From: Nitrosopumilus sp.
GTDB lineage: Archaea > Thermoproteota > Nitrososphaeria > Nitrososphaerales > Nitrosopumilaceae
Direction of reading: 5' to 3'
Length of the DNA stretch: 64,000 nucleotides
NCBI GenBank assembly: GCA_965205425.1
Contig: CBDBGZ010000009.1
Location: forward strand, 768,001-832,000
Each line of letters begins with the position of its first letter. Position 1 is the stretch's first letter. The translations under genes and the position numbers were made by a program. A model generated the notes under the pieces. That model had not been told where the DNA came from. It saw nothing but the letters and a program-made list of their open reading frames with translations, and ran no database searches. Of this stretch, positions 14,354 to 43,048 are shown one piece after another.

Positions 14354-14396
14354 ACAATACTGAAAAATTAAATAATCAATATTTTTCATCACAATC

Positions 14397-14648
14397 ATGG
14401 GAGCAAATCCATACATCCACATTCCAAAAGAATCATTTCCAAATTGGATTTGGTATACAATTGAATGTGTTATAGTTATTGCAATTTCTATGCTCACATC
14501 AAGTAAAATCACTGATTCAATTGAAGGACTAAACCCTGAAGTACAAAACTATGTGTTTATGGGAATTGTAGGCGCATTCTTTTTAATTTGGTATATTGGA
14601 ATCAGAGGAATAATTCTAAAAAAGAAAATTCTAAAGAACAGCTACTAA
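14397..14648 (+). CDS. Small membrane protein
   Basis: 2 TM segments. Confidence 0.65.
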   Translation: MGANPYIHIPKESFPNWIWYTIECVIVIAISMLTSSKITDSIEGLNPEVQNYVFMGIVGAFFLIWYIGIRGIILKKKILKNSY

Positions 14649-14650
14649 AA

Positions 14651-15325: not shown

Positions 15326-15335
15326 ACCATATTCT

Positions 15336-17558: not shown

Positions 17559-18599
17559 TTGATTCCTAAAAAAAATTATCAAATGAACTGGAGATTAATC
17601 GCTATTCCTATCACATTAATTCCTATTTTCATTATTGCTATTCAATTTGATATTCAAATTGAAGACGTACTTGCAATTGGACTATTTCCATTTGTTGGCG
17701 CAATTGTTGCCATGATGATCAAATTGGGTCTTCAAGGAGTTAAATTTGCATATATTACACGAAAATATCTTGGTAACTTTGATTCATTTTTTAAATTAGT
17801 TGGAGTTAGAGTTGGTAGTGAATTTATTAAATTTACAACTCCAATGTTTATTGGAGCCGAATTTGTTGTAATTTATTATCTGCATAAGAAAGGTGCAAAA
17901 CCTGCAAAATCTGCATGGATTGCAATAATGGATATTGTAACTGAAGTATTTGCAGCAGGTTTACTTTCTATTATGGCAGGAATAATTGCATTACTTAGTG
18001 GTGCATATGTGGTTGCAGCAGTTATCTTGGCTACTAGTATTATAATTACATCTTTGTGGATGGTAATGTTCTTCCTTTCCTCCAAACATACTTTCCAAGT
18101 TCCTAAAGTGTTAGAAAACCTTGCAACAAGATTTGGAAAAGAAAAGGGATCTAAAGCCATAGACAAAACAAACACTTGGATGGAAGAAGTATGTACTATG
18201 AGCCGAGAAAACCTAAAAACTTCTGAATCTAAAAAAATCTTTGTTGTTTCATTCTTGTTTTCATTAGTATCTTGGTCATTTTATGGAATCTCCTTTATGA
18301 TTATTGCAATGGGAACTGACTTTACAATTAATGCATTTGATTCTATCATGGCAGTTATGGGTGCAAATGCAATTGGAAATTTGCCAATTACTATAGGCGG
18401 ATCTGGTCTTGCAGAATTTGGAATCATTGCATATTTGAATAATTTAGATCCATTTGCATTTGAAATTACAGAGGGAGTTGTAGGTTGGGATGCAGTAATT
18501 GGTTGGAGAATTGCAACATATTATGTTCCAATTGTGATTACATGGTTACTTTTAGTTAAATTAGCCTTGAGTAAGATACCAAAATCCCAGTCTTCATAG
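17559..18599 (+). CDS. Lysylphosphatidylglycerol synthase TM-region (UPF0104, flippase-like) protein
   Basis: Multi-TM; TP..GAE, P.T.GGSGLAE and WRIATYY motifs. Confidence 0.85.
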   Translation: MIPKKNYQMNWRLIAIPITLIPIFIIAIQFDIQIEDVLAIGLFPFVGAIVAMMIKLGLQGVKFAYITRKYLGNFDSFFKLVGVRVGSEFIKFTTPMFIGAEFVVIYYLHKKGAKPAKSAWIAIMDIVTEVFAAGLLSIMAGIIALLSGAYVVAAVILATSIIITSLWMVMFFLSSKHTFQVPKVLENLATRFGKEKGSKAIDKTNTWMEEVCTMSRENLKTSESKKIFVVSFLFSLVSWSFYGISFMIIAMGTDFTINAFDSIMAVMGANAIGNLPITIGGSGLAEFGIIAYLNNLDPFAFEITEGVVGWDAVIGWRIATYYVPIVITWLLLVKLALSKIPKSQSS

Positions 18600-18611
18600 A
18601 AACCACTCTAT
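18596..18611 (+). repeat. attL candidate
   Basis: ATAGAAACCACTCTAT; overlaps the stop codon of the upstream gene; 15/16 identical to 43033..43048. Confidence 0.8.
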
Positions 18612-18671: not shown

Positions 18672-19814
18672 ATGTCTCTTAAAGTTTTAGATAAATCATT
18701 AGAAGATTATTTAACATCAGTTTTCATCATATCTCACAGTCATAGTACAGTCAGTTCCTATCGTTTAGCTATTACAAATAAACACAAAACAGGATTTAGA
18801 GAATTTTTATCACAAAAATATTCTATTGATGAATTTGAATTTGTTGAGAAAGTAAATAATGAATCTCTAGATGTTTACAAAATTCTAAATGAATATGTTG
18901 TATTTCTTGATTCTAATAATTACAAACCAAAATCAATAATGAGTAGAATGGCTGCTGTTAAAGGATATCTTAGAAATTTGGGTTTAAGATTTAATTCTGA
19001 AGATTACAAACAAATGGTTCGTATTCCACGAATAATTAGACAGAGAGAAGAACCTGTAACCAAAGAATTAATTGCAAAATTACAAAGAAATCTACCTCCC
19101 AAACTACAAACCATTGTTTTAGTTCTTTCATCTAGTGGAATAAGATTAGATGAATTAGTACAATTAGAATTAGATGATATTGATTTCACAACTCATCCGA
19201 CTACAATTAGTTTACGAGCAGAAACTACAAAAACTAAAACTGAAAGAGAAACATTTCTTACAACAGAAGCTACCAATTCCCTAAGAGAATACCTCTCAAG
19301 ATCTTTTGAATGGAATGAAAATAGCAAAAATCTTCATCTAAAAGAAATCAAAATCTTTGGAAGAACATCAAAAATGAAGAATCTAAAACGAAAATCAAAT
19401 CCAAAACAACCTCCACATCTTCATGCCGAAAGTTTACTACATGGAAGTTTCAGATATTTCCTTGAAAAAAATCCTGAACTTGATTCTAGGAATAAAAATG
19501 GCAGAAAGGTAGTTCATTTTCATGCATTTAGAAAGTTTTTCAGAACTACAGTTGGAAATGTTTGTGGAAGAGACTTTGCTGAAGAATTAATGGGTCATGG
19601 ATTCTATATGGATACGTACTATCAACTATCTACTGAAAAAAGACAAAAAATGTATCTAGAAGCAGAACCTCATCTTACAATCTCTGATTTTAAAGAAGTT
19701 GAGAAGAATTTAAAAACACTATCCATGAAATATGCAGAATTAGAAGCAAAGTTCAACGAGTTTAAACTACAATCAAGAGATAACAGTCTTCAAGTTCCAG
19801 AATTTATGAAATGA
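18672..19814 (+). CDS. Tyrosine recombinase/integrase
   Basis: Catalytic residues present: SSGIR, TKTK, HAFRK, LMGH, DTYY. Confidence 0.95.
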   Translation: MSLKVLDKSLEDYLTSVFIISHSHSTVSSYRLAITNKHKTGFREFLSQKYSIDEFEFVEKVNNESLDVYKILNEYVVFLDSNNYKPKSIMSRMAAVKGYLRNLGLRFNSEDYKQMVRIPRIIRQREEPVTKELIAKLQRNLPPKLQTIVLVLSSSGIRLDELVQLELDDIDFTTHPTTISLRAETTKTKTERETFLTTEATNSLREYLSRSFEWNENSKNLHLKEIKIFGRTSKMKNLKRKSNPKQPPHLHAESLLHGSFRYFLEKNPELDSRNKNGRKVVHFHAFRKFFRTTVGNVCGRDFAEELMGHGFYMDTYYQLSTEKRQKMYLEAEPHLTISDFKEVEKNLKTLSMKYAELEAKFNEFKLQSRDNSLQVPEFMK

Positions 19815-20723: not shown

Positions 20724-21170
20724 TCAGTATCTACCTCCTAGATTTGAAATCCAATCAGGTCTTCTTTCAGATAGTACTTGTTCAGAATCTCTGAGAATTT
20801 GTCTCGTTGATAGTTTTACTCCAAAGAGTAACAATATCATCTGTATTGAATTAGTCGCCATCATCATATCTTGATGTAGAAATGCTATTGCTTCTTTACA
20901 ATTTTCAGTACGTCTAGCATGTTGCTTTTTACAATTAACAATGGTTTTGATTGCACCTATTGTATTTCCATAAACATACTTGTTTACTCCTCTGTAGGAA
21001 TTTCCTAAACTAGACATTACATAATCATAATGTCTGTCAAGTGAATGATTTTCAATGACATAACTTTGTTCCAAATTTTGGAATACAAAGCTGTCATAAT
21101 TTTCAGGAATATTATATTCCTCATTGACGATATGGCCGTCACCCATTTGATAGAAAACTTGTTGTTTCAT
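20724..21170 (-). CDS. Hypothetical element protein, first gene of the small-ORF operon
   Basis: 148 aa; N-terminus resembles the ORF at 36312. Confidence 0.65.
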   Translation of the reverse strand: MKQQVFYQMGDGHIVNEEYNIPENYDSFVFQNLEQSYVIENHSLDRHYDYVMSSLGNSYRGVNKYVYGNTIGAIKTIVNCKKQHARRTENCKEAIAFLHQDMMMATNSIQMILLLFGVKLSTRQILRDSEQVLSERRPDWISNLGGRY

Positions 21171-21222: not shown

Positions 21223-21315
21223 TTATTTTTATTATATCTATTATTTACGCCTACGCCATTTTTTGAATTCAGAAAATTGAGACAAAAAAGCATCATTTAG
21301 GATTGTAGGTGGGTT

Positions 21316-22634
21316 CAGTAGATAGGAAAGTGCTCAATTCGGATCAAAAAATAACGATCATTTTCTCAAATTATTCAGATAGAAAAAGCTTGATGTAAGT
21401 ATGTCACTCCATCAAATATGCATTGTACTTCATTTGATACCATGACACACCAAGGTGTAGTACTATCAAAAGCATTTGATATTGTCGCTAAAATAATGTA
21501 CAATATCTTATTGTTTCCGTGTTCTGATAAAAATAACTCACGGTTCCACAATGCAGATGCACACAATTCTGTCATGTCATTGTGTCTTGGAAATTCGTAT
21601 GCAGAATCAGGATTGAAGAGACTGGCAATGGAATCCCAGAATCATTCTCCAACGGGTTTCATGGTTGAGAAAAATCATATCAAAAATATCACAAAAAACA
21701 ATGCAAATTCAATTACATCGTTCACTGGATAGTACCATATCAAAATTACAAGAATTGGGAGTATTGGAGCAACCAGTTACTGTGGCAATTGACAAACATC
21801 TAATCCCAAGATATGACAAATTGCCAAACCATTCTTTAATAAAATCAAAATCTAAAAACAGTACAAACTCTTTTGAGAGTTACTGTACCATGCAGTGCGT
21901 TGAAAAAAGAATCAGGGCTCAATTAGGTTGTTATCCTTTGTATGACAACAAATCAAATGCCGATTTTGTGCGTAAATTACTCTCTGATGGCATCAATAAT
22001 GGAATCAAGATTAAACTATTGCTAGTGGATAGGGAGTTTTTCACAGCTGGAACAATTTCAGAAATAAAACAAAAGAATTTAAAATTTCTAATGCCTGCAA
22101 AAAAGAATTCTCGAATCAAAGATGCCATTTTACAATACGTTAATGGAGATAGAAAGTCAATCTCGCCATACACGATAAAATCATCATCAGGACATGTAGA
22201 ATCATTTAATCTAGTTATTCTGCCAAACAAAAATGCAAGAAAAAAATCAAATATTATTGATCAGTATGCTGTGTTTGCAACAAATATTTCACCAAAAGAA
22301 ATATCTGAAAATATACAGGACATTCCAACTGATTACAAGAAACGTTGGGGAATTGAAACAGGCTATGCATGTGTGGGAAGGTTCAGACCAAAAACCACCA
22401 GTTCAAACCAATCCATAAGATTGTTGTATTTTTACTATTCATTGATTTTGTACAATGCATGGATAATTGCTAATTTGATTATCTCAGAAGAAACTAATGT
22501 ACAAAATCACAAACCAATAATATCAATTGAAATTCTCAAATATTTCTTTGTAAAGATAATTATTCATTACTTTAGAAATAACAAAAATAATTATTTCCTA
22601 GAATGTGTAATTTGATGTACTTTCCCATCTACTG
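21316..22634 (+). mobile_element. ISH3-family (IS4-like DDE) insertion sequence with frameshifted transposase
   Basis: TIR CAGTAGAT(A/G)GGAAAGT; 5-bp TSD GGGTT (21311-15 and 22635-39); AIDKH, DREF and YKKRWGIETGY motifs; ORFs 21418..21732 and 21665..22615 joined by an extra T near 21658. Confidence 0.88.
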
Positions 22635-22699
22635 GGGTTTTTCAATACTTTTAGTCCACGTGGAGTTATTTTATAAAATCCAGGTTTTGGATACTCGAT

Positions 22700-23849
22700 T
22701 ATAGTTAAGGCATTAAATATTTGAATATTTTAACAACTCGAACGTCTCCATTATCTAGTCTCTTCTGCATGTGTTTTCTCATCTCAGTTCCATTTGCAAA
22801 GAATGTATTGGCATTACCATTTTTCTCTTCTCTCCACTGTACCTCAATTGGATTGAGTTCTGGGGTGTATGCAGGAAAATATCTTATGATTACATTTCTT
22901 TTTGATTTCTTGAGAAATTCTTTTACTCTGACACTTTTGTGGTATGATGCATTGTCTGCAAATAATAACAGTTTCTTGCCAAATTGTTTCTGCAGTGATT
23001 CTAAAAAATCAAGAAATGAGTCTGTGTTTGATTTATCATAGAACCTACAAAAAAATACGCCGTCATCCCCCAATGCACCAAATGATTGAAATTTTTCTCG
23101 AGTGTAATTAATTGGTGTGGTAATGTTATTGCCTGCAAGATACCATCCGCGCTTTATGTTAGGTGCTATCTTGTTTGTTGACTCATCCAGACATAGTGTG
23201 GTGTATCCCAATTTGGAATATTTTTTGATACTCCTTTTTGCGTTTTTTTAAAACGGGTTTGTTCCTCTTTTGAGGCTGATTTGTGATGTGTGGGACGTGG
23301 TTTTTTTGATGAGAATCCAATTCTGTGCAGCAATTCACGCATTCCTCTTGCAGAGTATAGGGTGTTGTATTTTTTATTCACATGTGTAATTACCATTCTT
23401 GTACTCCACATGAATTGGTTAAATCCAAACTTTTCTGGACCTGAAATTAGATCATTTCTTAATGATACTAGCTGTTTTTCATTTAGAAAACATCTAGAAC
23501 CAGAATATTTCTTGCGGTGTGATGCAGATATTCCCTCTTCATCCATTCGATTTAGCCAGTAGGACAGAGTTGATGGTATGACATCCAGACTTGCACATAT
23601 CACAGAATACGGAATATTTTGTTTTCTTAGTATTGCAGCCTTTAATCTTATCTTTGCTTTTGCATTTTTTTCATTCTTGCATACTTTTCTTAAAAAATTA
23701 ATGCTTGTACCTTTCATGAATTGATTTCCAGAGGAAACCTTGGATTGTCTTGTACTCTTTGACATGGTTTCATGAATTGATTCTACGATCTAGATCTTTT
23801 GAGTTAAAATACTTGACAGTTTATTCAAAATTTATATGCCTAAACTATA
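22700..23849 (-). mobile_element. IS630-family element (two-ORF transposase)
   Basis: TIR TATAGTT(T/A)AGGCA with TA target; HTH ORF 23166..23765 plus DDE ORF 22705..23211 (DES, DNASYH, PELNPIE); poly-A slippery run at the ORF junction. Confidence 0.92.
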
Positions 23850-24105
23850 GTTTAGCATATTTTAGAATAGTTCTTGACCATCTCACTCGATGTAGAAACA
23901 ATCGTTCTCCTCCTGATTTTTTAATTCTAGTTTTTTCAGAATTAGTAAGTTTAAACTTTTTAGCAAGAACTTTTTCGATATCTAAAACAGAATGTTCTTT
24001 TCCATCTTTTGCTGATTTCAATAATGGAAGTCTTATTAGAGATTCAGCCGGATATGCTATGAACACAATACACATATGTAAGTTAAATCATTTTCTTGTA
24101 GATAA

Positions 24106-25527
24106 TTGAAAAATATAAAATCTAAATTACTATATGGTGACAAAATATCAAATTCTGATACTGACCCAAAAATCTATTCAACAATCTATGCTATGCATAA
24201 ATACTGGGCAAAAAAACCTCACAATCTAATTAATGAATATATTAAAAAATTTTCCAAGAAAAATGATATTGTATTAGATCCATTCTCAGGATCTGGAATT
24301 TCATTAATTGAATCATATAATTCAAAAAGAAAAGCAATTGGGATTGATATTAATCCCACAGCTTTTGCAATTACTAAAGGAATCTTAACTCCAGTAGATA
24401 TTGAAAAGTTTGAAAATGAATTTTCAAAAATTGAAAATCAATGTAAAGAAAAAATAAATTTATTTTATAAAATTAAAAGAAATAAAAAAACATATGTTGC
24501 TACACATTTTGTTTGGATAGATGGAAAACTAAATGAAATAAGATACAAAAATGGAAAAATGGTAAAATTAAAACCAACTCTATCTGATGTTCAATTAGCA
24601 AAATCATTTACATATGCAAAAATAAAACATTTCTATCCAAAAGACAAACTATTTGATAATCCTAGAATAAACGCTAATTCAAAATCTAGAGTTTGTGACC
24701 TTTTTACCCCTAGAAATACGACTGCACTAGCGATTTTACTTGATAAAATCAATAAAATTCGTGACAAAAATATTCGTGACATATTTCGATTATGTTTTTC
24801 ATCTATGTTGGGTCAAACTAGCAAAATGGTATTTGCAATAAATAATTCTATAATTAATGGTGAAAAAAAGAAATTAAGTACACGCAAGGTAGGAAGTTGG
24901 ATAATTGGATATTGGGTTCCAAATGAACATTTTGAATTGAATGTTTGGAATTGTTTTGTAACACGATATATGAAAATACTTTCAGCAAAAAAAATACAAC
25001 AAGAAAAATTTGGAAAACCTGAATTTGCAACAAATTTTAAAAAATTGAAAAAAACAGATATTTTTTTAATAAATAAATCTGCCATTCAAGGATTAAAGAA
25101 AATTCCTAACAATTCTATTGATTATATTATTACTGATCCACCTCATGGAGATAGAATTCCATATTTGGAATTAAGTCAGATGTGGAATAGTTGGTTAAAA
25201 AATAAAGTAAATTACAAAAATGAAATTATTATTAGTAATTCAAAAAGTAGGAATAAAAATATTGAAAACTATCTAAAATTATTAGAAGATACAGTATCAG
25301 AAATGATTAGAGTATTGAAACCCAATAAACGATTAACATTCATTTTCAATACTCATAGTGAAAGAACATGGCAAGAAATTTTTAAATTCACAAAAGATAT
25401 TGGTTTGAAAATAGATGATATTTCAACAATGAACTATTCTCGTAATTCTGTTGTTCAAGAGCATAAAGAAAATGGATTACGTTTTGATTTTGTATTGACA
25501 TTTAAAAAATTACAAAAAACGAATTAA
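24106..25527 (+). CDS. DNA amino-methyltransferase (N6A/N4C, alpha-type motif order)
   Basis: MHKYWAKKP, motif I DPFSGSG, motif IV TDPPHGD, RVLKPNK. Confidence 0.88.
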   Translation: MKNIKSKLLYGDKISNSDTDPKIYSTIYAMHKYWAKKPHNLINEYIKKFSKKNDIVLDPFSGSGISLIESYNSKRKAIGIDINPTAFAITKGILTPVDIEKFENEFSKIENQCKEKINLFYKIKRNKKTYVATHFVWIDGKLNEIRYKNGKMVKLKPTLSDVQLAKSFTYAKIKHFYPKDKLFDNPRINANSKSRVCDLFTPRNTTALAILLDKINKIRDKNIRDIFRLCFSSMLGQTSKMVFAINNSIINGEKKKLSTRKVGSWIIGYWVPNEHFELNVWNCFVTRYMKILSAKKIQQEKFGKPEFATNFKKLKKTDIFLINKSAIQGLKKIPNNSIDYIITDPPHGDRIPYLELSQMWNSWLKNKVNYKNEIIISNSKSRNKNIENYLKLLEDTVSEMIRVLKPNKRLTFIFNTHSERTWQEIFKFTKDIGLKIDDISTMNYSRNSVVQEHKENGLRFDFVLTFKKLQKTN

Positions 25528-27001
25528 TTTTTGAATTTATTTTTTAACCAATTGATTTCTATATCTCTATTATGAATATACTCTGGATTTTGTTGAACAC
25601 CCAAAATGAAGCGTTTTTCAGCTAATAGAAAACGAATAAAATGATATATGTAGTTTATTTTTCCAATTTCTTTTCTTGATGAAAATATACGATTTCCATT
25701 TTTTGTTAATAGTTCATTAGGATTTTCAGAAACACAGTCTATGTTTTTTTTGAAAAAGGCTTCATCACATCTTTGAATAATAAAATTTTTAATTTCAGGT
25801 TCAAGATTGTTATTTTCCATATGTTTCCTTAGAAGGGGAGGAACAAAGTAAAGATCATTTTCTATCCATCTTGTAAAAGTTCTTGTAAAACCAGGTTGTA
25901 TTGTAATCCAAGTTAAACTATCCATTGATGAAATTTCATCTATATTTTTTACACAAAATCTACATACTTGATTATACATATACAAAAATAATTTTTTAAA
26001 TTGTTTCTGATTAATCAGTTTAAGTCTTGATGTACCTAAATACAGTAAATGCATAGATTGTGATAAAAACATACCTAAAAGATCTGCTGGTTCTGCCTCT
26101 TCCATATGTTGAACGTGCGTTTCTAATTCAGATTCTCCTACAATTTTGTATATTTGAAAGAAATACAGTTTATTTTCTTGAAAATTTGTTTTATCAAGAC
26201 GTTTTGAAAATTCCCATTCAAAAGTTCTTTCTTTGTCATTTAAACATGGAATAGAAACTGTAATTATATTATTTTTAATTGAGATTAATCTTCCTATAGC
26301 TGTTCTAATTCCTACAAATGTTTCATCTTTTGTTTTTGAATCTAAATAAATTCTTTTAAAATTAATTGGAGAATTATGAGACATTATTGTTTTTCCATCA
26401 TCAAAAAGATAGTAAGCATATTTCCAATCGTATAAACTATCATACCATTTTTTTTCTACTAATTTTGAATTACGATCATGGTTTGGATGAATTTCATTTG
26501 GAAGATCTATACCACATTTTTCAGAAAACTCTAAGACTTTAGAATCATCACCTGTATTGATTAATTCTAAAATCTGCTCCCAAGCAATTAATGAGCTACT
26601 TTTTTTGTAGGATTTTCTTTATTTGGTTCTTGTAACCAAACATCTAATGAAATAAAATTCTCTAATTCTGGGCAAAGTCCATGATACACTAACAGATTTG
26701 TTTCTTGGCCACCCCAATTTTGAATTACTACCTTGCCTCCAGGAACTTTTTCTTTGTTAAGAATCTCTAATGTGATTGGAAATCTATGAAAATCCAACCA
26801 ACCCCGTCTACTGTTATCAGTGACACCAGCAAAGATTTTACTCATTTTTAATCTCTCAAAATTATTTAGATCTCTTGGTAATGTAGTTAAGAATTGATAT
26901 TCACCATCAATTTCATCTAAAATTTTTTTGATTTTTTCTCCAGAGAGTTTTTTTGCATCAAAATCTTTTTTAATTTTATTAACAGCCTCTTTTAGATTCA
27001 T
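25524..27001 (-). pseudogene. ~492-aa unknown protein split by a frameshift at an A7 run (~26600-26606)
   Basis: The 286-aa ORF frame stays open upstream to the A7 run at the end of the 137-aa ORF; adding one A fuses them; ATGA-coupled to the helicase gene. Confidence 0.7.
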
Positions 27002-30000
27002 GATTCACCTCTTGTATCAATTTTAGGTCGTTCTTTAATTCCTGAAATTGATGTATTATTGTAATTCCAATAATCATCAAATGTTTTTACATCTTCATCA
27101 ACTGTGTTTTTTGCTGAATGTATTTCGATTATTGTTTCATTATTAGCAGTACCAAAATTTTGATAATCAAATAGAAATCGTAGTCCTTTATCTAATCTAA
27201 TAGATTTTTGTTTATCTATAACAACAAATCTTCTATGAATAGGATTATCATATCCTTGCTCATCAAATGAAACAATTTGAATATTATATCCTGAAGAATT
27301 AAAGAACGATTGATCTCTAATTATTGAAGCATGATCATGTCCACAAGTAACAATTTGAATAACCACATTTTTGTTTAAATGTCTACAAAGATAACTAATA
27401 TAGAAACGCAAATTTTCATTTCCTCTAGGATTTCTCATATGCCCATCAAAAATTTTTATTTCATAATTTGCAGAATCTAGAATTTTATTAAAAACATTTA
27501 CTGCATCTTTTAAACTGTCTCGATCTCTTCTTTTTATTCTATAATTTTCAATTTTTTCTAAATTGGTAAGATCATTTAGATTAATTGTTTGCGAATTTGC
27601 TTCAATCTCTTCAATTTTTTTTAATGATTCCTTAATTGGTTGATCAGCAGATGTATAATGTATTGTTGATACTTCGTTCCATAATTTTTCAGTTAGTGCA
27701 CCAGAAATTTCTAAAACTTTTCTTGTTTCATTATATGGATCTACTATGAGAAGTGTATCTCCTAATTCGTCTTTTTTGGCTTCGAAATAATCATGTTTTA
27801 AAACTAAAACATCTACTCCAGCCTCAATCAATTTTCTTAGAATAGAATGATTAGTTAAATTGAGTTGTTTTAGGTAAACAGTAATTGAAACACTTTTTTC
27901 TCCAGTTCTAATTGATCCAAGAATATCTGCCCATTCTTTCAAACCTTCATCATTAAAATCAATTTGATTTGTAGAGATTAAAGGAGTAAAAATCACAATT
28001 TTCTTTTTAGCTGAACGAAGATTATTTTTGATTTCTATAACATTTTCTTTGTTTCCAGGTAAAGAAAGATTTTTTTTAAATTCGTCTTTAGATTTAATGT
28101 TCAGCTTTTTTTTTGAATCTTGATCCGGAACAACTAAGTTTGAACATTCTTGTAATAGTGGTAAAATTAACTGTTTGTCAATTAATTTAATATCACGTTT
28201 ATTTCGATATGACCACAAACATCTCAAACAACCATGATCACAATTTTCATGATATGTTTCATATTCATCTTCAACAATTCTATTTGCTCTACGTAATACT
28301 TCTTCAAATCTATCAAAAATTACATCAACATAGCCAGCACCACCATCAACATTATCGTATAGAATAATTTCACCATCTTTCACAATTCCAGAAATTTCTC
28401 CTTCACCTGACTCACAAATAGATTGTCCCGCAAAAATTATGGCATTTTTTAGAGTCGTTAAGAATGTTAAAGATGGATTCTTTGTCTGATTTTCTTTTAT
28501 TTTCTCATTTATTTTAATGGAAATTACATTTGTAGGCATTTCATGATGTAATGCTAAGTTTGTCCAAGAACCTGTACAACGTTGTTTTTTTCGATTGAAT
28601 TTTTGATTTAGTGGATAATGTGGTTTTTCAGCTTTTCTTTTTTTCTTATTAGGTTTTTTTGCTCTACCACACTTGCTACATATTTGCAATGTTGTTTCTT
28701 TTCTTTGATCAATTTCATCAGGATCTGCATAATCAGTATATACATCATTTACGATTAGTAACAGACGAATATTTCCATAATTTTTAAGGTCAAATGAGTA
28801 ATTTCCAACTTCAAATCTTGGTTTTTCTTCAGGATTTACTTCAGGTAGAAATATGTTAAATTGTGCTTCTCTATAGTCACTACTTTCACTAAGTGATTTT
28901 TGGGTTTTTTGAATAAAGATCTTTTTTGGTGAAATAGAACTGATTGAATCAGGAGTATGCATTATTTTTTTACATAATGGACATTCTTTTCCTGTTAGTG
29001 ATTGAGTGCTATAGAATTTTAAGCAATTATTACAAATGTAGAAAAAGTTTCTATCTGGATTAGTTAGATCTATTCCTATAGATTGATATTTTTTCTTTCG
29101 ATAAATGATTTCACAATTTGGTGCAAATTCTACAATAGCTAATTGTCTAGAACGACCACCATGCATTTGATTACCTTCCATATCCTCAATTGAAACAGAT
29201 AATCCTGGAAATGCAAATCTTGGAAGGAAATTAACATCAAATAGATGATTTTCTAAAGGTTTTCTCTCTAAACTCTTACGTTTTTCCCATAATTGGTTGA
29301 GTTTGTTCGAGTCATAGAAATCAGCTTGATCACCTTTTGTTGCAAAATCATTTATTCCATCTTTACAAGCTTGTAATTCTTGAATGAATACATCTAATGA
29401 ATCATTAAATGTAACTGTCTAGAGTTTTGAAGTACTTTCTTTAATATTTTTTATCTATATCTTTTCTGATCAGTGACAAATTACAATATACAATTGTCAG
29501 TATATGATGAGCTGGAATATTATCGTAACAGATGTCACTCGTTGGAGCAAGAAAACCGTCAGTTACGCAAAGATATTGAATCACTACACAGAGAAATTGC
29601 AGAACTAAAACAAACAGTGTCTACACTTGTTGCAAGAAATATCAAAGCAAAACCAAACCAGACTGAAACTGCAAAAAAGAAGAAAACATCAAGACATCCT
29701 AGAAAAAGCAGAAGCAGACGGGCACACATTGATGATGCCATTACAGTTGACCAAAAAGAGTGCAACACATGTGGCAAATCACTCTCAGAACCAACTGATT
29801 CATACACCAGAATAGTAGAAGACATCATTCCTGCAAAAGCAGTTGTGACAAAATATACGATAGTTAGACGATACTGCACAAACTGCAAAAAACAAATCTC
29901 GGGTAACATTCACACTGTACTGTCAAATGAAAGGTTTGGAATTAGGCTCATGGTGCTAATCACATCACTAAAAACTATCGGATTATCGTATGGTAAAATA

Positions 30001-33000
30001 TCTCATCTTTTGCAGATGCTCTTCTCACTGCACATTACAGAATCTGCAATTAATCATGCAGTATCAATAGTATCAAAAGCATTTGGGAGCAGATATGATA
30101 CAATGATTGTAGAGTTAAAAGAAGATCTAAACATACATGGTGATGAGACAAGTTGGAGGATAGATGGCCAGAACCACTGGTTGTGGGCATTTGTGAGTAA
30201 ATGGACTGTAATTTACGAGATTGACAAATCACGTTCAATGGATGTTCCCAAGAGAATTCTCAAGGAGTATAATGGCAACATTACAAGTGATTCGTACCCT
30301 GCATGGAACCATGTTGGAACAACTCACCAGAAATGTCACATCCATTATCTCAGAGAGGTTAATGATACCATTAATCACAAGAATCCCGGACCAGAATTTG
30401 CACCATTTGCCAAGAATCTCAAGAAAATAATTTATGACTCTCATGGTGTGGCAAAAATAAAATCAGAATCAGAAAGAATCCATGCAAAAAAGAATCTTGA
30501 AAGGAGAATTAATCACATCATATCAAAAAAATACACAGAGAAAAACTGTATCAGGTTTGTAAAAAGATTGAAACGTGAGAGAAAAATGCTTTTTACATTC
30601 CTAATTACTGGAACTGATTCACACAATAACACAGCAGAGAGGGCAATCAGACCAAATGTGATAATTCGTAAAATTACAAACGGTCATAGAACCATTCATG
30701 GTGCCGATTCTCATAAGATACTGATGAGTATAAAGGAGACATGCAGATTACGAGGATTAAACTTTCATGATTATTCTTTAGAATATCTTGGAGATTTTAC
30801 TTCAAAACTCTAGACAGTTACCATTAAATTCATTTTCAAAACTTTCTAATTTCTCATCAATATAGTTTGTGATATTTACATCATTAGGAAGATCTAATCC
30901 TGCTAAGACATTTCTAATACTACTAGTAATAGGATCTTTATTTTTCTGTATTTGTAATTCTATTTTTGCAATATTTTCTTCTCGTTCAGATAAAAATTCT
31001 ATTACAGATTTAGAAAGAATTTCTTTTGTTTCTGAAAAAACTAATTGTTCTATGATCAATGAATTAAGATGTCTGCTGATAAGTTCATTATTTTCAATTT
31101 TTATTGGTGGAGGATTAAAATGTCCTTTAATCAAATCTTGTGGATTTCTATAATGAAATTCATCGATTGGACTATTAAAGAAAAAAGTATTGATAAATGA
31201 AACACCGCTTCTTCTTCCTGCTCTACCAACTCTTTGTAGATAACTTGCAGGAGATGGAGGAGATTTGTAAAGACAAACTGTCGATAAATCCCCTATATCT
31301 ACACCTAATTCTAGAGTTGGGGTTGCAACAATAACATCAATTTTACGCTCATCTTGAGCATATGGCATAAACTGTACTTGTATTCTGTTTTTTTCTTCTT
31401 CAGGAATTGCTGCTGTATGTTCACGTACACTCATTCTTGACGGAGCAGTATCTTTGAATTGTTTGAAGAAATGATTATCCCCAACTTCTTCACAAAAATC
31501 TTCAAACGTTTTTTCATTAGTTTTTCCAGGACATATCTTTTGACGTGTATAATTCCTACATTGATTATGAGGAAGATTCATGTAATTATTTTTACATTCA
31601 GGACATTTCTGAATATGATTAGGAGTGGATACTAGTAATTTTGAAGTTGAAACCATAAAAGCAGTTTTAGGCTCTGCAAATCTGAATTTTTTTAATCCTC
31701 TAGGAATAATATATCCTCTTTTTTCCATAAAATTCCAAACTGTTTCTAAAATGAAACTTATATCATCATCATCATTTAATTCAAAAACTTTCTGAGTGTA
31801 TTTGATGTATTTGTTTTTATTTCTAATTATATTATGAATTTTTACTCCATCTTCAATTTTCTTTGAAGTACCAGAAACATCTCTCTCAAATCCATGAGCA
31901 TATGTTTTGCTCTCACCTCGTCGATCTTCTAATCCTTCTATTGCTTGTTCTGTTCTTATCATATTAAGAATTGTTGTAATGAATTTGTTAAACTCTTGAG
32001 ATGATGTAGAAGTAAGTTCAATAATATTTTCAATTTTTGAAGAAACTGTTCTATTTGGTTTAATTTTTGATAATAAAGACATCCATTGAGGTTTAAATTT
32101 CTCCCAAGAGTTTAAACCTCTATAATCATATTGAATTAATCCTAATCTTTCTAAGGAAAGTCTAAGTCTATTTGCATTTTCAAATAATATTTTAGTTTTA
32201 AATTCTTCTCTGGATCGATCAAATGATTCAAAATTAAATGAATACCATTCTTCTTCTATAGTTTCTATCACAATTTCCTGAAATCTATCAAAACCAATGG
32301 GCTCTTTTTCTAACAGAATAATTTCATTCAATTTTTGACTCATCAATTGTTTTATTGCAGTATCTTCATGAGCAAAATCTAACCAACCTGCAAGTTCTGC
32401 CGCATCTTGTCTGCTATCAGTAAAAGTCAAAAATTTTCTATTTTCAACATGATCATATATCATATTGAAAAGATTTACAGTTGCTTGTTTTTCTGCCATA
32501 TTAAATTTAGTTACAGCCCAACCACTACCATAACTATAATGACAAAATGGACAATCTCTTGGTCTCCAACTTGATGTTACATCTGATTTTGGAGGATATG
32601 TCTCAATTAGAATTAGATTTTCTGAATTACAAATATTTTCATGAATATTGTTTATACAAACTGATGATGATATAGGCGAAAAACTTCCACAATCAAGACA
32701 TTTCTTATATTTTCTAATTTTATGATCAACTTCTTCATCTTCTTCTTCAACTTCATTATTTTTAATCATTGAATACCATAATTCATCACTATCATTTTCT
32801 GACTCATCAAATGATATTCGTTTAATTGGGTTTGGTTCTTCTGGTTGTTGATTTTCTGCAAGTTCTAATATTTTATTTCTTTCAGGAACGTTTAATCCAT
32901 CTTCTAAGTCAGATTTGCTAACTTTTGAAACATAAAATTCATGTGAGCAATTTCTACAAACTCCTAATTCTTCTACAATTTTTTTACATTCATCACATTT

Positions 33001-34551
33001 TTCTTTATTTACAAAAAAGATTTTACTGCATTTTGGATTAGTACACATGAAAATTGGGGGTAATACTCTAAAGAAATTATGTATGCTTACTCTGAGTAAA
33101 GGTTCATCCAAATTTTGTGATGGATTTTTTGCTATACTTCCAGCTTTGAGGTAACTCCAGATCAAATCATCCAAAACTAAAGCATTTTCTGAATTTTTTA
33201 CTTTTGAAGAAATTATTTGTTCATTTTTTAATAATTTTTGAATTTCTTCTACGGAACGTGGTTCATCTAATTTTTTGATTAAAAATTGGAATAATTCATT
33301 CTGTAAAAGAATTTTTCCCAGAAATTTTCTTTTATCTTCTACAATTCCTTGATTGGAGCCTATGATAGAATTTTGTAATTTTATAAAATTTTCATCAGAA
33401 AAATTTTTCTCTAATTTATCGTCTATATTTAGTGGTTCAAGTTTATCAATTTGTTTTGTTGCTGGTAGTTCCCAAGGTTTTCTTTCACCTTCAAAAACAT
33501 CATCATTGGAAAATGTTACTCCGAATAATTTTTTTGCAAATTTTGCAATTTCTTGCTTACGCTCAGTAGGGTTTTTTGATTTTGACATAGTTGCACTTGT
33601 TCCAATGCACAAAAATTCAAGATTGTTAGGAGTAACAAAATCTAATCTACGTTTTAATCTTCTAAGAAGTAATGATACGTCTACACCTCTTGCTCCTTCA
33701 TATGTATGCATTTCATCTAAAATCAAATACTTGACTTTGTTATTTTCAAATAATGGAATATCTGAAGGTCGTAAAAGAATCCTATCTAACATAACATAAC
33801 TTGTAATTAGAATATCTGGAGGATTATCTCTTAATTCTTCTCTTGTTAATAATTGAAAATCTAATTCTACCTCTTTTTCTTCATTACAACGAAGAATACA
33901 ATTTGGATTTGAAGGTGTTTTTTCTACTACAAGAGAATCTTTCTTACAGTTTGGACATTGAAATTCTACATCTAATTTTGGATCTAATTTATTCCCACGA
34001 TATGCAGTTTCAGGAGTTGCACCATTGTATATTCCAAAAGTAATTTTTTTTAATCCTTTACTGTCTCTAATTTTATTTAATTTAAAAAGATAATCTCGTA
34101 ATCTAGTTACTTGATCTCCAGCTAAAGCATTCATGGGATAAACTATAATTGCTTTAATTCCTTCTACATTTGCTTTTGAACAAGTATCTAAAACTGGAAT
34201 TAAAAATGACTCTGTTTTTCCTGAACCAGTACCTGATGAAACAATTGTATTTTTTTCATTAAGAATAATATTTTTAATTGCCAGTTCTTGATGCTTGAAG
34301 AAATTTTCTACTCCAACAGCAGTTAGAACATCTTTATCAATATCTGCATCAGCCATTAATTCATAATCTTTTTGACCATGAAGATAATTTTGAGTGATTG
34401 AGATAAATGGAGATTTCCAAAGTCTATTATTGTTCTTTAATTCATCTAGTTTTTTAGCTAATTCTTTATTTCCTAATGCAAAGTTTGCTTTGTAAAAATC
34501 AACATAATTCTGTTGAATTTCTTTAGTTGCAGATAATGGATTAGTAATCAT
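26998..34551 (-). pseudogene. ~2044-aa SF2 DEAD/H helicase + Zn fingers + DUF1998 + tandem PLD-like domains (DruE/DrmAB/YprA-like), interrupted by IS66
   Basis: SGTGSGKTE, YPMNALAGDQ, DEMHTY, TSAT, FTDSRQDAA, ATPTLELGVDIG, QRVGRAGRR; after IS removal FLPRFAFP, YDNVDGGAGY, CDHGCLRCL, IHRRFVVID; removing 1419 bp keeps the frame. Confidence 0.9.
29411..30821 (+). mobile_element. IS66-family element, single-ORF type, intact transposase 29473..30813
   Basis: 24-bp perfect TIR GTAACTGTCTAGAGTTTTGAAGTA; 8-bp TSD CATTAAAT; Zn ribbon, HGDETSW, QKCHIHYLR, NNTAERAIR. Confidence 0.95.
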
Positions 34552-35285
34552 ATGATTGTCTCCTTTTTTGAGGTATTTAATGAAGATCCCTGAATATTAT
34601 TTATGATATTATTACTTTCATCTGGATTACATTGATTTAGAAATTTACAAAAATAACATAATTTTGAAAATTCTTTTTTAGGTGGATTTTTCTCTAACAG
34701 GGATTTTTCTAGTTCAAGAATTCTATCTTTTAACCACCATGTCTTATCCTCATTTTTTATTTGAAATGCAATCATGTCATTAAGATCAGCGTAAACAAGA
34801 ATTAAACGACTAACAGGGATAATATTTGAAAATATTGTTCCATAACATTGAATTTGTAAAATATCTTCTTTTTTAGGAATAGTTCCTTCTTCTGCTTGTG
34901 AATAGACATCTTTTGTAGTTTTTAGATCAATGATTGTTCTAGTTTTCCAATCATACATGTCTAGTCTACCTGAAATTGTTCTTAATTTCCCATTACCAAG
35001 TGGAATTTGAAAATCCATATCCAATTCATTCCAGTTGTATGCTGAAGTCATTTGATGTAATAGATCACCTCTTACTGTAGGCCACAAATTATCAAGTGTT
35101 TTTCTTGATTTTCTCTTCATCTTAGTTTTTTCATAATATGATTTTCTAAGGCAGCGAATTATCTCAGTTACTCCATATGATAGAGTTTTGTCATTTCTGA
35201 AAATCCCTGACTTTTTTTCTAAAAATGATGTAATCCCATCAGGAATGTCAACCTGCATGAATTGTTTGTTTTTTTCTTTTTGCAT
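34548..35285 (-). CDS. Cas4-like PD-(D/E)XK nuclease (Fe-S type)
   Basis: CLRKSYY, RGDLLH, SGRLD, IDLKT, QIQCY, CYFCKFLNQC; stop overlaps the helicase start. Confidence 0.85.
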   Translation of the reverse strand: MQKEKNKQFMQVDIPDGITSFLEKKSGIFRNDKTLSYGVTEIIRCLRKSYYEKTKMKRKSRKTLDNLWPTVRGDLLHQMTSAYNWNELDMDFQIPLGNGKLRTISGRLDMYDWKTRTIIDLKTTKDVYSQAEEGTIPKKEDILQIQCYGTIFSNIIPVSRLILVYADLNDMIAFQIKNEDKTWWLKDRILELEKSLLEKNPPKKEFSKLCYFCKFLNQCNPDESNNIINNIQGSSLNTSKKETII

Positions 35286-35321
35286 ACATTACATTACAGT
35301 ATCTTTCTTATCAAATAATTA

Positions 35322-35334
35322 TTGTATAATACAA
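35322..35334. promoter_or_regulatory. Palindromic operator candidate, copy 2
   Basis: TTGTATAATACAA 37-49 bp upstream of the Cas4-like start, the same spacing as copy 1. Confidence 0.6.
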
Positions 35335-35346
35335 AAAATATTTGTA

Positions 35347-36246
35347 TTAAATTATATCTCCGATAGCCTCAGGATTTGCCGCATGAAGGTGACCAAAATC
35401 TGTCAATTCTATAAAAGTACTTTTTCTATCGGTTTTACCTGATTTTGTTTTCTCAATTCCTTTTACTCTTACAATTAATCCAGCGTCTTCGAGTTTATTC
35501 AAATGAAAATTAAGTAATGTTGTTGTAATTGGTCTAAATTCAACTTTCTTTTTGAATTTTCCAGTTTTTTTATATTTACTAGTTTTAGAGTCTTTTTCCT
35601 TTTCTGCCTTTAATTTTTCAGTTGGCATTCCTTCTTTATCAAAACTTTTTAATAATTTTGTTCTACTAACAGGTGGATTTAATTCCCAAATTCTTGCTAA
35701 TATACGTGAAGTAGTACTTTCAGTAGAACCTGAAATTGTATTTCTACTCTTTACTCTAGGTGGAACAGGTAATTCTATTACTAGTTCTTTTCCTTTTGCT
35801 TCATGGTATTGTAACACATAGTACATTTTGGTTTGTGCAAGATAAGCAGAGCATGCAGCTCCTGCAACCATTGCCTTTGTGCCACCAGTTAAGTTAATCG
35901 CAAAATCCTTTCCTTGTAATTTTGCATTTTTCTTTTTCTCTTTGCTGATAATTCCCTGAATTTCACGGATTACATCATATGTATCATATTTTCCAACCTT
36001 AACTAATTCCACTTGAATTTCAAACTCTTTTACAATTTCTCTTCTTAATTTTTCAGCATTGTCTTTATATTGTTGAGTTTTTAGATGATCTTTTTCTTTT
36101 CCTTTGGCTTTTTCTAAAGCATCTTCAAATTCTGATTTTGTTTTTTCATTTTCAGTATGTAAAATGTATATCTTATCTGGTGGATTTTTTCGTAATCCTT
36201 CTTTAACAACAATTTGAGTATCTCCAACTGTGGCTATTTGTATCAT
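35347..36246 (-). CDS. CARF domain + winged HTH regulator (Csa3/DUF6293-like)
   Basis: IATVG, DKIYILHT, INLTGGTKAM, MYYV..ELP (CARF); C-terminal LNFHLNKLEDAGLI...IELTDFG (wHTH). Confidence 0.82.
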   Translation of the reverse strand: MIQIATVGDTQIVVKEGLRKNPPDKIYILHTENEKTKSEFEDALEKAKGKEKDHLKTQQYKDNAEKLRREIVKEFEIQVELVKVGKYDTYDVIREIQGIISKEKKKNAKLQGKDFAINLTGGTKAMVAGAACSAYLAQTKMYYVLQYHEAKGKELVIELPVPPRVKSRNTISGSTESTTSRILARIWELNPPVSRTKLLKSFDKEGMPTEKLKAEKEKDSKTSKYKKTGKFKKKVEFRPITTTLLNFHLNKLEDAGLIVRVKGIEKTKSGKTDRKSTFIELTDFGHLHAANPEAIGDII

Positions 36247-36460: not shown

Positions 36461-37207
36461 TTGAGTACTATTACTAAAGAAAAAATACCTAGTCTTACTG
36501 AAGAAATTGATACTCCTGAAGGTATAGTCAACTTTTTACAAAAAAGAAATGGATTATACTCTAAGGATTATACTTCAAGATATTCTGTAACTGAACTAGT
36601 TGGTTGTCAAAGAAAGTCTTTGTACAAACAACAAGAAGTATCTCAAGAAGAATTACTTGCAGATACAACTCTTGAAAGTATGTGGGCAACTGTTCGTGGT
36701 GATTTCCTACACAACATGACATATGCATACAAATGACGTGAGATGGATATTGAGCATTACATACCATTAGACAATGGTAAAGTAGCAACACTTGCAGGAA
36801 GGCTAGACATGTATGATTGGAAAACTAAAACAATCATTGATCTAAAAACTACAAAATTTGTTAGATGGCAAATAAAGCAAGGATTTTTGCCAAAACCTGA
36901 ACACATTCTTCAATTACAATGCTATGATACAATGTTTTCAGAATATGTGCCAGTAGAGAATCTAAACATTGTATATGCTGACATGTCTGATATTGTAACC
37001 TACAAGGTAGAAAAAAGAGACTTGACTGATTGGATAAAGACTAGAATCCAAGAAATTGAAACTGCTAAAACAGATAGTGTAATTCCAAATGGTGAAGTAT
37101 CTGGTTTATGCAAGTTTTGTAGGTATCAAACTAGATGTTCAGAGGCAGGAAATGGATTAACTGACAAACCATTATCTACTCCAAAACCAAATGAGGAATC
37201 TTCATGA
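36461..37207 (+). pseudogene. Second Cas4-like nuclease with one in-frame TGA (36734-36736)
   Basis: Two in-frame ORFs; TGA aligns to Trp of the paralog (AYK*REMD vs AYNWNELD); CQRK, RGDFLH, GRLD, DLKT, QLQCY, CKFCRYQTRC. Confidence 0.85.
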
Positions 37208-39818: not shown

Positions 39819-40466
39819 TTGAGAAAAAGTTTGGAAAGAACAATCAAACAATTAATTAACTTAGAATTAATTAAAATAAAAGAAATACAAGATAGAGGTA
39901 GAAGAAATTATTCTTATAAATCAAAAAATAAACTAAAACAATACAGGAAATTTTTGAGTAAAGAATATGATAGAAAATTTACAGGTTTAGAAATATTTGA
40001 AGAGAAGCGATTTAAAAAGAAGATAGATCATATTTGGTCAAAAATTATTAAAAAAATACATCATAATTCTACAAAATATAATAGATTTAACAGAAATAAT
40101 CTGAGAAAAAAATTTAAAATCAAATCAGCTAAATTACAGAAAAAAATCACAAAAATTCAATGGCCTAACGAAATTTCCATTAGAGATATAAAATATCATC
40201 ATGCAAAAAAAATTCAAAGAGATTATGGTGAAGGACGTATTTGTAATGTTTGTTTGAATGAAGATAGAATTTTAGATTATTTTAAAACAAATTATATGGA
40301 TTCTCAATTATTTTGTTCAAAGGGACATATTCTAAAAATTCCTCAAACACCTGAAACATTTATGGATTCATTACAAGTGAGTGATTCAGAAAAACAAATT
40401 TGGAACAATATGCTAAAATCAAAAAAAATTAATAAATACAAAAAGAATCATTTTCGCTTTCGATAA
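39819..40466 (+). CDS. Basic protein with N-terminal wHTH and a C-terminal CxxC motif; start uncertain
   Basis: Frame is open upstream (ASIPELEQKLGILRKSLERTIKQL, HTH-like); CNVC...CSKGH. Confidence 0.55.
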   Translation: MRKSLERTIKQLINLELIKIKEIQDRGRRNYSYKSKNKLKQYRKFLSKEYDRKFTGLEIFEEKRFKKKIDHIWSKIIKKIHHNSTKYNRFNRNNLRKKFKIKSAKLQKKITKIQWPNEISIRDIKYHHAKKIQRDYGEGRICNVCLNEDRILDYFKTNYMDSQLFCSKGHILKIPQTPETFMDSLQVSDSEKQIWNNMLKSKKINKYKKNHFRFR

Positions 40467-43032: not shown

Positions 43033-43048
43033 ATAGAAACCACTTTAT
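43033..43048 (+). repeat. attR candidate
   Basis: ATAGAAACCACTTTAT just upstream of the SDR gene. Confidence 0.8.

Follow-up and report, generated by a model that had tools for sequence, protein, structure and literature searches.

YprA-family helicases are the shared engine of the defence systems DISARM, Dpd, Druantia and ARMADA, and the way in which these systems discriminate self from invader is still open. In passages of Bell et al. 2025 (PMC12458937), ARMADA is described as a YprA-like helicase with a BrxHII-like helicase and a PglX-like methyltransferase (MTase), which also occurs in archaea (type I), and DruE of Druantia III as carrying one inactive and one active PLD domain. Parts of two further reports describe DruE as a helicase-nuclease and DruH as a nuclease and sensor (10.64898/2026.05.12.724681), and show that E. 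coli DruE binds single-stranded DNA (ssDNA), forms dimers on it and unwinds in the 3'-to-5' direction (10.64898/2026.05.13.724758). A neighbourhood link between Cas4-like genes and COG1205 (YprA-like) helicases was noted in passages of Hudaiberdiev et al. 2017 (PMC5704561). Here we analysed a stretch of 64,000 nucleotides (nt) from Nitrosopumilus sp. (assembly GCA_965205425.1, contig CBDBGZ010000009.1, positions 768,001 to 832,000; called the window), in which a giant YprA-family helicase gene lies among Cas4-like, CARF and MTase genes and a partner gene of no annotated family. Our results suggest that this locus is probably a decayed version of a defence cassette that is rare and unnamed and belongs to the YprA superfamily (ARMADA/Druantia clade), carried as cargo by a 24.4-kb integrase-borne element. 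The cassette is a variant within the YprA-helicase defence superfamily and not a categorically new kind of system.

Gene content of the locus

The genes of the cassette, with the insertion sequence (IS) that splits one of them, are the following; protein lengths are in amino acids (aa).

36246..35347, minus strand: CARF-domain protein gene, 299 aa, intact
35285..34548, minus strand: Cas4-like gene (Cas4a), 245 aa, intact, with an ATGA overlap with the helicase gene
34551..26998, minus strand: helicase gene, IS included, in the pieces 34551..30802 and, stop-to-stop, 29418..26998
27001..25524, minus strand: partner gene, earlier called 'unknown', frameshifted
24106..25527, plus strand: amino-type DNA methyltransferase, 473 aa, intact, convergent on the partner gene
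36461..37207, plus strand: Cas4b, second Cas4-like paralog, pseudogene with a TGA at 36737-36739
21244..24069, minus strand: remains of a stand-alone Mrr_N gene, in the pieces 24069..23848, 22720..22634 and 21333..21244
29411..30821, plus strand: IS66-family insertion sequence (transposase 29473..30813; Pfam DDE_Tnp_IS66 5.7e-32)

An earlier reading of the same DNA by a model (the first-pass annotation) had described co-oriented CARF, Cas4-like, helicase and unknown genes converging on an intact MTase. The minus-strand order and the plus-strand MTase agree with this description, and the ATGA overlaps that it reported between the Cas4-like and helicase genes and between the helicase and unknown genes are both present in the sequence. 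The 3' ends of the MTase and partner genes also overlap, by 4 nt. The helicase of about 2044 aa stands as a frame of 2044 codons once the IS is removed (by coordinate arithmetic), and in the window the gene is split by the 1411-bp IS66-family element. The unknown gene could not be kept as a single gene of about 492 aa; it consists of two frames that meet at an A7 run, and its homologs are single open reading frames (ORFs) of 472-490 aa. The CARF part of the proposed CARF-winged helix-turn-helix (wHTH) gene was confirmed, and the wHTH part is weakly indicated, at sub-threshold scores. The Cas4b pseudogene, the split Mrr_N gene and a conserved 148-aa ORF had been overlooked. The earlier observation was thus largely right with the decay overlooked, and its interpretation was partly right.

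The helicase

Sequence comparison identifies the helicase as a YprA-family protein with a DruE-like architecture. The N-terminal part (30822..34551, minus strand) comprises RecA1, insertions and RecA2 (Pfam DEAD 3.1e-24, Helicase_C 3e-14). The C-terminal part (26998..29410, minus strand) comprises an OB-CON-MZB (DUF1998) module and two PLD-fold domains (Pfam MZB, the MrfA zinc-binding domain formerly called DUF1998, 3.4e-9; PLD-like MIT_C 4.3e-4, sub-threshold). Motifs I, II and VI (GTGSGKT, DEMH and GRAGRR) and the Cys cluster of MZB are conserved in 13 relatives.

DruE models were by far the best PADLOC models for the helicase, both for the N-terminal part (DruE1 1.6e-110, DruE3 6.6e-94) and for the C-terminal part (DruE1 5.8e-32, DruE3 1.7e-24, with the DruE3 match extending to profile position 1940 of 2055). 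The intact ortholog in locus L014, one of the related loci described below, gave 1.7e-142 with DruE1 and 5.8e-115 with DruE3. These matches have to be read with the contents of PADLOC 2.0, which is without ARMADA models, so that the DruE models may draw any member of the wider clade. The DrmA model matched much more weakly than DruE (2.6e-26). The BrxHI/II models matched only the RecA2 region of the YprA helicase itself and no other ORF of the 24.4-kb element (called the island below) or of L014. The closest solved chains were 9tu7 (2108 aa, E 3.3e-48), 9wae and B. subtilis YprA/MrfA 6znp; judging from its length, the 9tu7 chain would be DruE.

The last 387 aa were modelled with AlphaFold2 at a pLDDT (predicted local distance difference test score) of 85.5. 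In Foldseek this model matched the two-lobed PLD superfamily, with vaccinia F13 (E 2.1e-14), PLD3/PLD4 and PLD1/2. In the IS-free gene, as in 12 intact orthologs, a single frame encodes the helicase core, the DUF1998 module and the PLD region. The PLD region is absent from the helicases of the loci L009 and L023-L027.

The partner protein

The partner had no sequence match in Pfam, PADLOC, NCBIfam or PDB, and no DruH model matched any of 29 partner homologs or the two window fragments. A profile search of 1.84 billion cluster representatives gave a family of 49 representatives at E <= 0.001. In a six-frame search of 401 sampled genomes of the window's phylum, the partner was found in the centre genome only, plus one marginal match (E 0.007). 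Among 401 sampled genomes of the phylum of an Archaeoglobus metagenome-assembled genome (MAG), the same kind of search did not find it outside the centre genome. A scan of genome contigs with a single window fragment of the partner gave no locus, and the scan with the partner alignment gave 3 loci.

To describe the fold, an AlphaFold2 model of the 64%-identical homolog P0002 was used (pLDDT 84.6, predicted template-modelling score 0.89), which shows helical N- and C-terminal parts around beta-barrels. Foldseek matched this model to tandem-OB proteins, the HIN-200 domains of p202/AIM2/IFI16 from E 3.9e-6 and then Teb1, RPA, CST and LEF-3. The top matches of VIA were RPA (P. abyssi RPA, Z 7.6), Ten1/Stn1, RPA32 and OB domains of MCM, with Z of 7.6-6.5 over 96-117 aligned residues, a range (Z < 8) in which, as the tool warns, a match can be a common arrangement. 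The matches of both programs lie mainly over partner residues 67-320. Based on these models, the partner is likely an OB-fold protein that probably binds DNA. A search for look-alikes in the ESM Atlas gave no lead (best feature score 0.77, TM <= 0.31 on a poor Atlas model).

P0071 (532 aa), a distant member of the family, carries a PUA domain at its N-terminus (Pfam 1.6e-9); such domains also occur in archaeosine tRNA-guanine transglycosylases (TGTs). We also predicted the complex between the OB-CON-MZB module of the L012 helicase (498 aa, about a quarter of the protein) and its cognate partner; the score was 0.00 in two runs, which speaks neither for nor against binding.

Conserved gene order in related loci

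Twenty-two loci that encode a relative of the partner (19 metagenomic, 3 genomic) were queried by tblastn. The first-pass annotation had set linkage in other genomes beforehand as the test on which it could be refuted, and linkage was what we found. The partner gene lies directly downstream of a helicase homolog in 21/21 loci, with gene ends that overlap or nearly abut; the remaining locus, L022, is too short to contain upstream DNA. In the close (thaumarchaeal-type) loci, a Cas4-like gene precedes the helicase gene in all 7 with upstream DNA, and a convergent MTase gene is present in 11 of 11. Of these 7 loci, 5 have a clear CARF gene; in L013 the match is weak, and in L016 there was none. 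Five close loci also carry a second Cas4 paralog. Mrr_N was found in six of the eight close loci with DNA beyond the MTase gene, besides the fragments in the window. The conserved core consists of a DruE-like helicase of about 2050 aa and a partner of about 478 aa with an OB-fold middle, whose gene overlaps the end of the helicase gene. The marine thaumarchaeal version adds to this core a CARF regulator, a convergent amino-MTase, a small Mrr_N protein and either one or two Cas4-like nucleases of the Fe-S type.

The recurrence of the set bears on whether the genes merely gathered by chance in a hot spot, as an orphan MTase, a Csa3-like CARF regulator with a solo Cas4, and a helicase pair. The integration site is indeed a hot spot, the pieces differ in their degrees of conservation, and in L007 Cas4b is at the other end of the cassette. 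However, up to 11 loci from metagenomes or genomes show this set in this order, at 36-93% protein identity, which largely refutes a chance gathering; Cas4a, helicase and partner genes are coupled by ATGA overlaps, and distant loci keep a nuclease or modification module around the core. We regard such a gathering as very improbable.

The distant group of loci shares 25-36% identity and includes an Oligoflexia MAG and the Archaeoglobus MAG. There, tblastn with the Cas4, CARF and MTase of the window matched nothing. Five of the seven informative distant loci (L008, L009, L023, L024 and L027) carry DpdA/TGT and/or DpdC/DUF6884-like genes, the DUF6884 of L027 by Pfam only, and an N6_N4 MTase gene in L025 brings the distant loci with a modification gene to 6/7. 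L023 also contains a gene for a Vut_1 (YhhQ-type) transporter. In L021, a PD-(D/E)XK gene takes the Cas4 position and is accompanied by a HerA-like gene. In the distant versions of the cassette, DpdA/DpdC-like 7-deazaguanine genes thus stand in the place of the MTase gene.

We compared pairwise identities among six complete loci. Helicase and partner identities were correlated with r = 0.98 over 15 non-independent pairs, and the value for helicase and MTase was 0.45. L012 differs from L007, L013, L014 and L016 in the core, with helicase identities of 44-45% and partner identities of 48-50%, and its Cas4a, Cas4b and MTase are 68-87% identical to theirs. Helicase and partner therefore seem to be swapped jointly within a frame that is itself conserved, and L012 looks like an allelic replacement of the two-gene core. 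Such a joint exchange is expected of two proteins that work together under viral selection.

Cas4-like, CARF, MTase and Mrr_N genes

Cas4a matched the PADLOC Cas4 model (2.9e-12) and remained below curated cut-offs (Pfam Cas_Cas4 22.3 versus 22.7 bits; NCBIfam 37.9 versus 65 bits). We therefore call it a Cas4-like PD-(D/E)XK nuclease and not a bona fide cas4. The residues of the pattern C...D...DLK...QxxxY...CxxCx5C are conserved in Cas4a and Cas4b of six loci and the window, and include the features of the Cas4 family: a D...(D/E)xK core, QxxxY, and one N-terminal and three C-terminal Cys (Fe-S cluster motif). In the window, Cas4b lies upstream of the CARF gene and is divergent from it, across an intergenic region of 214 bp. 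Full-length Cas4b orthologs are divergent from the CARF gene in L012, L013, L014 and L016 and downstream in L007. The Cas4-like nuclease keeps the catalytic residues and the four Cys, its gene is coupled to the helicase gene, and it is the most likely candidate for the cutting enzyme of the cassette.

The CARF domain was supported by Pfam HFX_2341_N (1.9e-10, 41.6 bits against a cut-off of 30) and Cas_APE2256 (1.1e-5, 25.7 against 24.8), and the protein matched PADLOC CARF3 (3.8e-25). TIGR01884 (Csa3) matched the CARF part only (5.2e-4). The protein may also carry a C-terminal winged helix.

The MTase contains a Pfam N6_N4_Mtase domain (1.3e-19). Its PADLOC match to MTase_II (8.5e-51) was slightly better than that to PglX|PglXI (2.7e-48), and the protein has 473 aa versus 919 positions in the PglX model. 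It is 51-80% identical, over nearly the full length, to the convergent MTase in 10 of the 11 close loci; in L019 the gene end only is present. The Mrr_N gene is intact in L007, L012, L014, L016 and L017 and lies in two adjoining pieces in L010 (Pfam Mrr_N: L014 3.9e-21, L012 9.2e-22).

Comparison with named systems

The PADLOC search covered 16 window ORFs (8 of the locus and 8 others of the island) and 11 ORFs of the intact ortholog L014. No complete known system was matched in either, in line with the first-pass annotation. Matches in both were limited to DruE, Cas4, CARF and MTase types, to which L014 adds an Mrr_N-type match. There was no PADLOC match to DruA-D, DruF, DruG, DruH, DruM or separate BrxHII, DrmB or DrmC among these ORFs.

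The cassette resembles Druantia III-A (E. coli ATCC 8739/EDL933) in that its helicase is a giant of the YprA family that carries an MZB zinc module and, at the C-terminus, two PLD-fold domains. Like Druantia III-A, the cassette is compact, with one partner of no annotated family, and carried on mobile islands. This raises the question of whether it is a Druantia type III-like variant, in which the downstream gene would be a divergent stand-in for DruH, and the genes for Cas4, CARF and the MTase would merely share the defence island with the pair. The helicase would fit such a variant: its best PADLOC models are those of DruE, and its two PLD-fold domains, of which only the last has the His motif, mirror the PLDi/PLDa layout. 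The compact pairing of a helicase with a single partner of no annotated family is also that of type III. The partner speaks against such a variant. It is a protein of about 478 aa with an OB-fold core, encoded downstream of the helicase, whereas DruH is described as a large ten-domain protein of the YjiT family with Ig/Fn3-like domains, encoded upstream (druH-druE), and the partner matches no PADLOC model (DruH models, if in that release, included) and no Pfam family. The Cas4-like and MTase genes are linked in 7/7 and 11/11 close loci and are hence not casual neighbours; together with the CARF and Mrr_N genes, and perhaps the HxR form of the PLD motif, they set this cassette apart from Druantia III-A. 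Bell et al. 2025 also place the helicase clade elsewhere: the helicase ortholog of L007 is exactly KFM14388.1, which their Table S1 lists as ARMADA-like and deep branching, with the system unnamed and not Druantia (PMC12458937; passages of the main text are silent on this label). A Druantia variant is therefore unlikely, and an unnamed cassette of the wider clade remains our preferred reading.

A possible likeness to ARMADA type I lies in this label and in the match of the cassette MTase to PADLOC PglX|PglXI, a model that scored slightly below the generic MTase_II. Unlike ARMADA type I, the cassette has no BrxHII/RapA-like second helicase, and it has a PLD-like C-terminus, an OB-fold partner and Cas4-like and CARF genes. 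With Dpd/BRIGADE it shares the DpdA-like TGT and DpdC-like genes that adjoin its distant relatives, and PLD or PD-(D/E)XK nucleases that accompany the helicase. In contrast to Dpd/BRIGADE, the window version has an MTase instead of DpdA/C and one helicase versus two, and the loci are not from halophilic archaea. No matches to DpdB or DpdD-K were seen in these loci, and the island of the window contains no TGT or DpdC-like gene and only one YprA helicase; preQ0 genes at 13.0-15.4 kb are outside the element. DISARM likewise combines a DUF1998 helicase, a PLD nuclease and an MTase for modification-linked defence, but DrmA, DrmB and DrmC are separate genes there and all three are fused here. Unlike CRISPR-Cas loci, the window has no array-like tandem repeat in 18-44 kb and no Rfam match at the gathering score, and the whole 2.2-Mb genome (99.55% complete) has no Cas1 (PF01867) and no Cas10 palm domain (PF22335), for which control genomes gave matches. 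The first-pass annotation had likewise seen no CRISPR array, cas1 or cas10.

The first-pass annotation had not recognised the gene combination. This stands in that no named system was matched, and has to be qualified by what was already known, namely the DruE architecture, the entry of KFM14388.1 in Table S1 (PMC12458937) and the Cas4-YprA link of 2017 (PMC5704561). The text passages of Hudaiberdiev et al. 2017 (PMC5704561) contain no partner family, CARF gene, exchange of MTase and Dpd genes, or name. A limited search of the open-access literature found no paper naming this gene set. The Cas4-YprA link and the helicase clade are thus already in print; new, as far as searched, are the family of the partner, the complete set of genes including CARF and Mrr_N, and the exchange between MTase and DpdA/DpdC-like genes.

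The integrated element

The location of the cassette inside an integrated element, as the first-pass annotation had stated, was borne out by an empty site, direct repeats and an integrase. The features of the element are as follows.

18596..18611: attL core ATAGAAACCACTCTAT, 16-nt direct repeat, left end of the 24.4-kb element
43033..43048: attR core ATAGAAACCACTTTAT, right end of the 24.4-kb element, from a three-way alignment
18672..19814, plus strand: tyrosine integrase (Pfam Phage_integrase 5.3e-11)
20724..21170, minus strand: conserved small soluble ORF, 148 aa, with tblastn matches beside related cassettes

In G269, a congeneric relative whose flanks are about 91% identical at the nucleotide level, window position 18611 is joined straight to 43033. 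The 16-nt direct repeat at both ends of the element is present there in a single copy. Empty site and flanking repeat together set the length of the element at 24.4 kb, and its left end carries a tyrosine integrase. At the identical point, about 4.4 kb of unrelated DNA are inserted in a further species of the genus (G412; L041, 6604-11055), which indicates an integration hot spot. It is the 3' end of an LPG_synthase_TM gene, and not a tRNA gene, that the attachment site overlaps. The integrase of the window is 46-48% identical to those flanking the same cassette in L007 and L014.

A cassette that travels in this way could serve the element itself, in replication, recombination or the exclusion of competitors, with the MTase shielding the element's DNA from host restriction. 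The integrase-borne elements of the window, L007 and L014, the different insert at the same site in the other relative, and the HerA/TraG-like ATPase genes near the distant loci L009, L021 and L025 would all agree with such a role, and passages of PMC5704561 describe Cas4-like nucleases as common on archaeal mobile elements. We nevertheless consider it quite unlikely. Every member of the ARMADA/Druantia/DISARM/Dpd branch of the YprA family that has been characterised is a defence system, and the exchange of the MTase for DpdA/DpdC-like genes beside a nuclease-helicase is restriction-modification logic. The integrase has been kept while the cassette was freely inactivated, which argues that the cassette is not needed to maintain the element. 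A pattern scan of IMG/VR viral contigs gave 14 pattern matches, none of which was confirmed as a family member. A defence cassette carried as cargo is thus the reading that we retain.

Decay of the window copy

The helicase gene is split by the 1411-bp IS66-family element, which has perfect 24-bp terminal inverted repeats and is flanked by the 8-bp target duplication CATTAAAT at 29403-29410 and 30822-29. Five 100%-identical full copies and several fragments of this element are present in the genome (contigs C4, C5 and C9), and the read depth across it is about 8-15 times that of its flanks. It looks recently active. In the partner gene, the frames 27001..26588 and, stop-to-stop, 26618..25524 overlap and meet at the A7 run at 26600-26606. 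Thirty full-length homologs in the database are single proteins of 472-490 aa, to whose N- and C-terminal parts the window frames align. A programmed frameshift in the partner gene was rejected, as all 29 aligned full-length homologs are single frames.

In Cas4b, an in-frame TGA at 36737-36739 replaces a Trp that all orthologs have. The Mrr_N gene, whose fragments were located by tblastn with the intact L014 gene, is split by two insertions with approximate borders: an IS630-like element, whose transposase lies in two frames (22705..23211 and 23166..23765), and an IS that encodes a DDE_Tnp_1 transposase (21418..22615). CARF, Cas4a, MTase and the 148-aa ORF have full length relative to their orthologs. 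With the IS in the helicase gene, the frameshift in the partner, the nonsense codon in Cas4b and the Mrr_N gene cut by two IS, the restriction side is dead in this genome as read from its sequence; the MTase, CARF and Cas4a genes are open, and the cassette cannot work as a restriction system as it stands.

We also considered whether the defects are assembly errors. In contigs from four public runs (two studies), which agree with the window, the TGA, the two IS junctions and the frameshift region all recur without a gap; at least one of these runs is possibly the source of the assembly, and the agreement is thus not fully independent. The island contains three IS insertions within about 10 kb, of the IS66-family, IS630-like and DDE_Tnp_1 types.

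Proposed mode of action

For an intact cassette, such as those of L012 and L014, we propose the following. The MTase or DpdA/C would mark the host DNA. By analogy with E. coli DruE, the helicase would load on exposed ssDNA or 3' tails of the invader and translocate. The OB-fold partner may hold the displaced strand or sense its state, possibly its modification state, and the Cas4-like nuclease, perhaps together with the PLD-like domain, would degrade the DNA. The Mrr_N protein may read methylated DNA, and the CARF-wHTH protein may set the transcription of the operon in response to a putative nucleotide ligand. The support for discrimination by DNA modification is comparative: a DNA-modification gene adjoins the cassette in 17 of 18 informative loci, although this count and the other linkage counts do not stand for independent events, the close loci being related elements of one lineage.

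This caveat on the counts is one of several points that weigh against the proposal. The defence role of the clade itself is suggested by homology and context. For the partner, the OB-fold assignment has moderate scores (Z 7.6, TM about 0.2-0.4) and covers some 200 of its 478 residues; the invariant positions of the broad family are limited to P111, E114, W184 and P379, within a 'PELE' signature, so that no catalytic or binding site can be named. At the C-terminus of the CARF protein, HTH_20, HTH_27, HTH_24, MarR and HTH_5 all scored below the Pfam cut-offs (E 0.008-0.2), with 5 of 6 homologs matching at one and the same place, and no Cas10 and no Cas1 in the genome point to a source of any CARF ligand. 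The His motif of the PLD-like region is HxRxxxxD and not the canonical HxK, and is present in the second domain only, with H and R invariant in 12/12 sequences; this domain may be a binding or regulatory module. In E. coli Druantia III-A the PLD domains were dispensable and no nuclease activity was seen, and defence was independent of host methylation (in parts of 10.64898/2026.05.13.724758). The linkage to an MTase therefore need not mean modification-based discrimination.

A wider reading is possible and is offered here tentatively. The helicase-partner pair may be the core of a distinct YprA-family immune class, a restriction engine indifferent to the type of self-mark, which would be plugged into amino-methylation, with a stand-alone Mrr_N reader, or into 7-deazaguanine DNA modification of the DpdA/DpdC-like type. 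The OB partner would read the unwound strand, and in ammonia-oxidising archaea the CARF protein would hear a nucleotide signal without a type III CRISPR system.

The loci form a natural experiment, in which the same helicase-partner core is combined with an MTase (and an Mrr_N reader) or with DpdA/DpdC-like genes. Exchange of the pair as a unit makes the partner a concrete candidate for the sensing subunit that is still missing, and the part played by DNA modification can be tested directly. To our knowledge, few defence systems have been described for marine ammonia-oxidising archaea. The cassette would add one, with a CARF protein that has no CRISPR partner in the genome. The copy in the window is a pseudogenised relic, valuable in that it leads to intact orthologs, L012 and L014 among them.

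Other genes of the element and its surroundings

The 148-aa ORF at 20724..21170 gave tblastn matches on the MTase side of the cassette in L007, L010, L012, L013, L014, L016 and L017. It has no Pfam family and no hydrophobic segment, and its PADLOC match as a '4TM effector' (E 6.9e-4) was rejected for the lack of such a segment. The right third of the island contains ORFs at 37784-39148 (minus strand), 39819-40466, 40768-41193 and 41203-42582 (plus strand), with no PADLOC match and no homolog adjoining the cassette in the 22 related loci. In the last of them, Pfam recognises an adenylate/guanylate cyclase domain of class III (Guanylate_cyc 7.3e-8). That such an enzyme shares the island with an orphan CARF protein is suggestive; with no PADLOC match and no homolog beside the cassette in the 22 loci, however, the ORF was dropped as a partner of the CARF gene.

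In DNA common to its relatives, 3-5 kb to the left of the island (13018-15409), the window carries a radical-SAM gene, GTP cyclohydrolase I (FolE) and QueC. From this context we read the radical-SAM gene as QueE-like. These genes form most of the preQ0 pathway, presumably for tRNA archaeosine. They deserve mention because distant relatives of the cassette carry DpdA/DpdC-like genes, which need preQ0.

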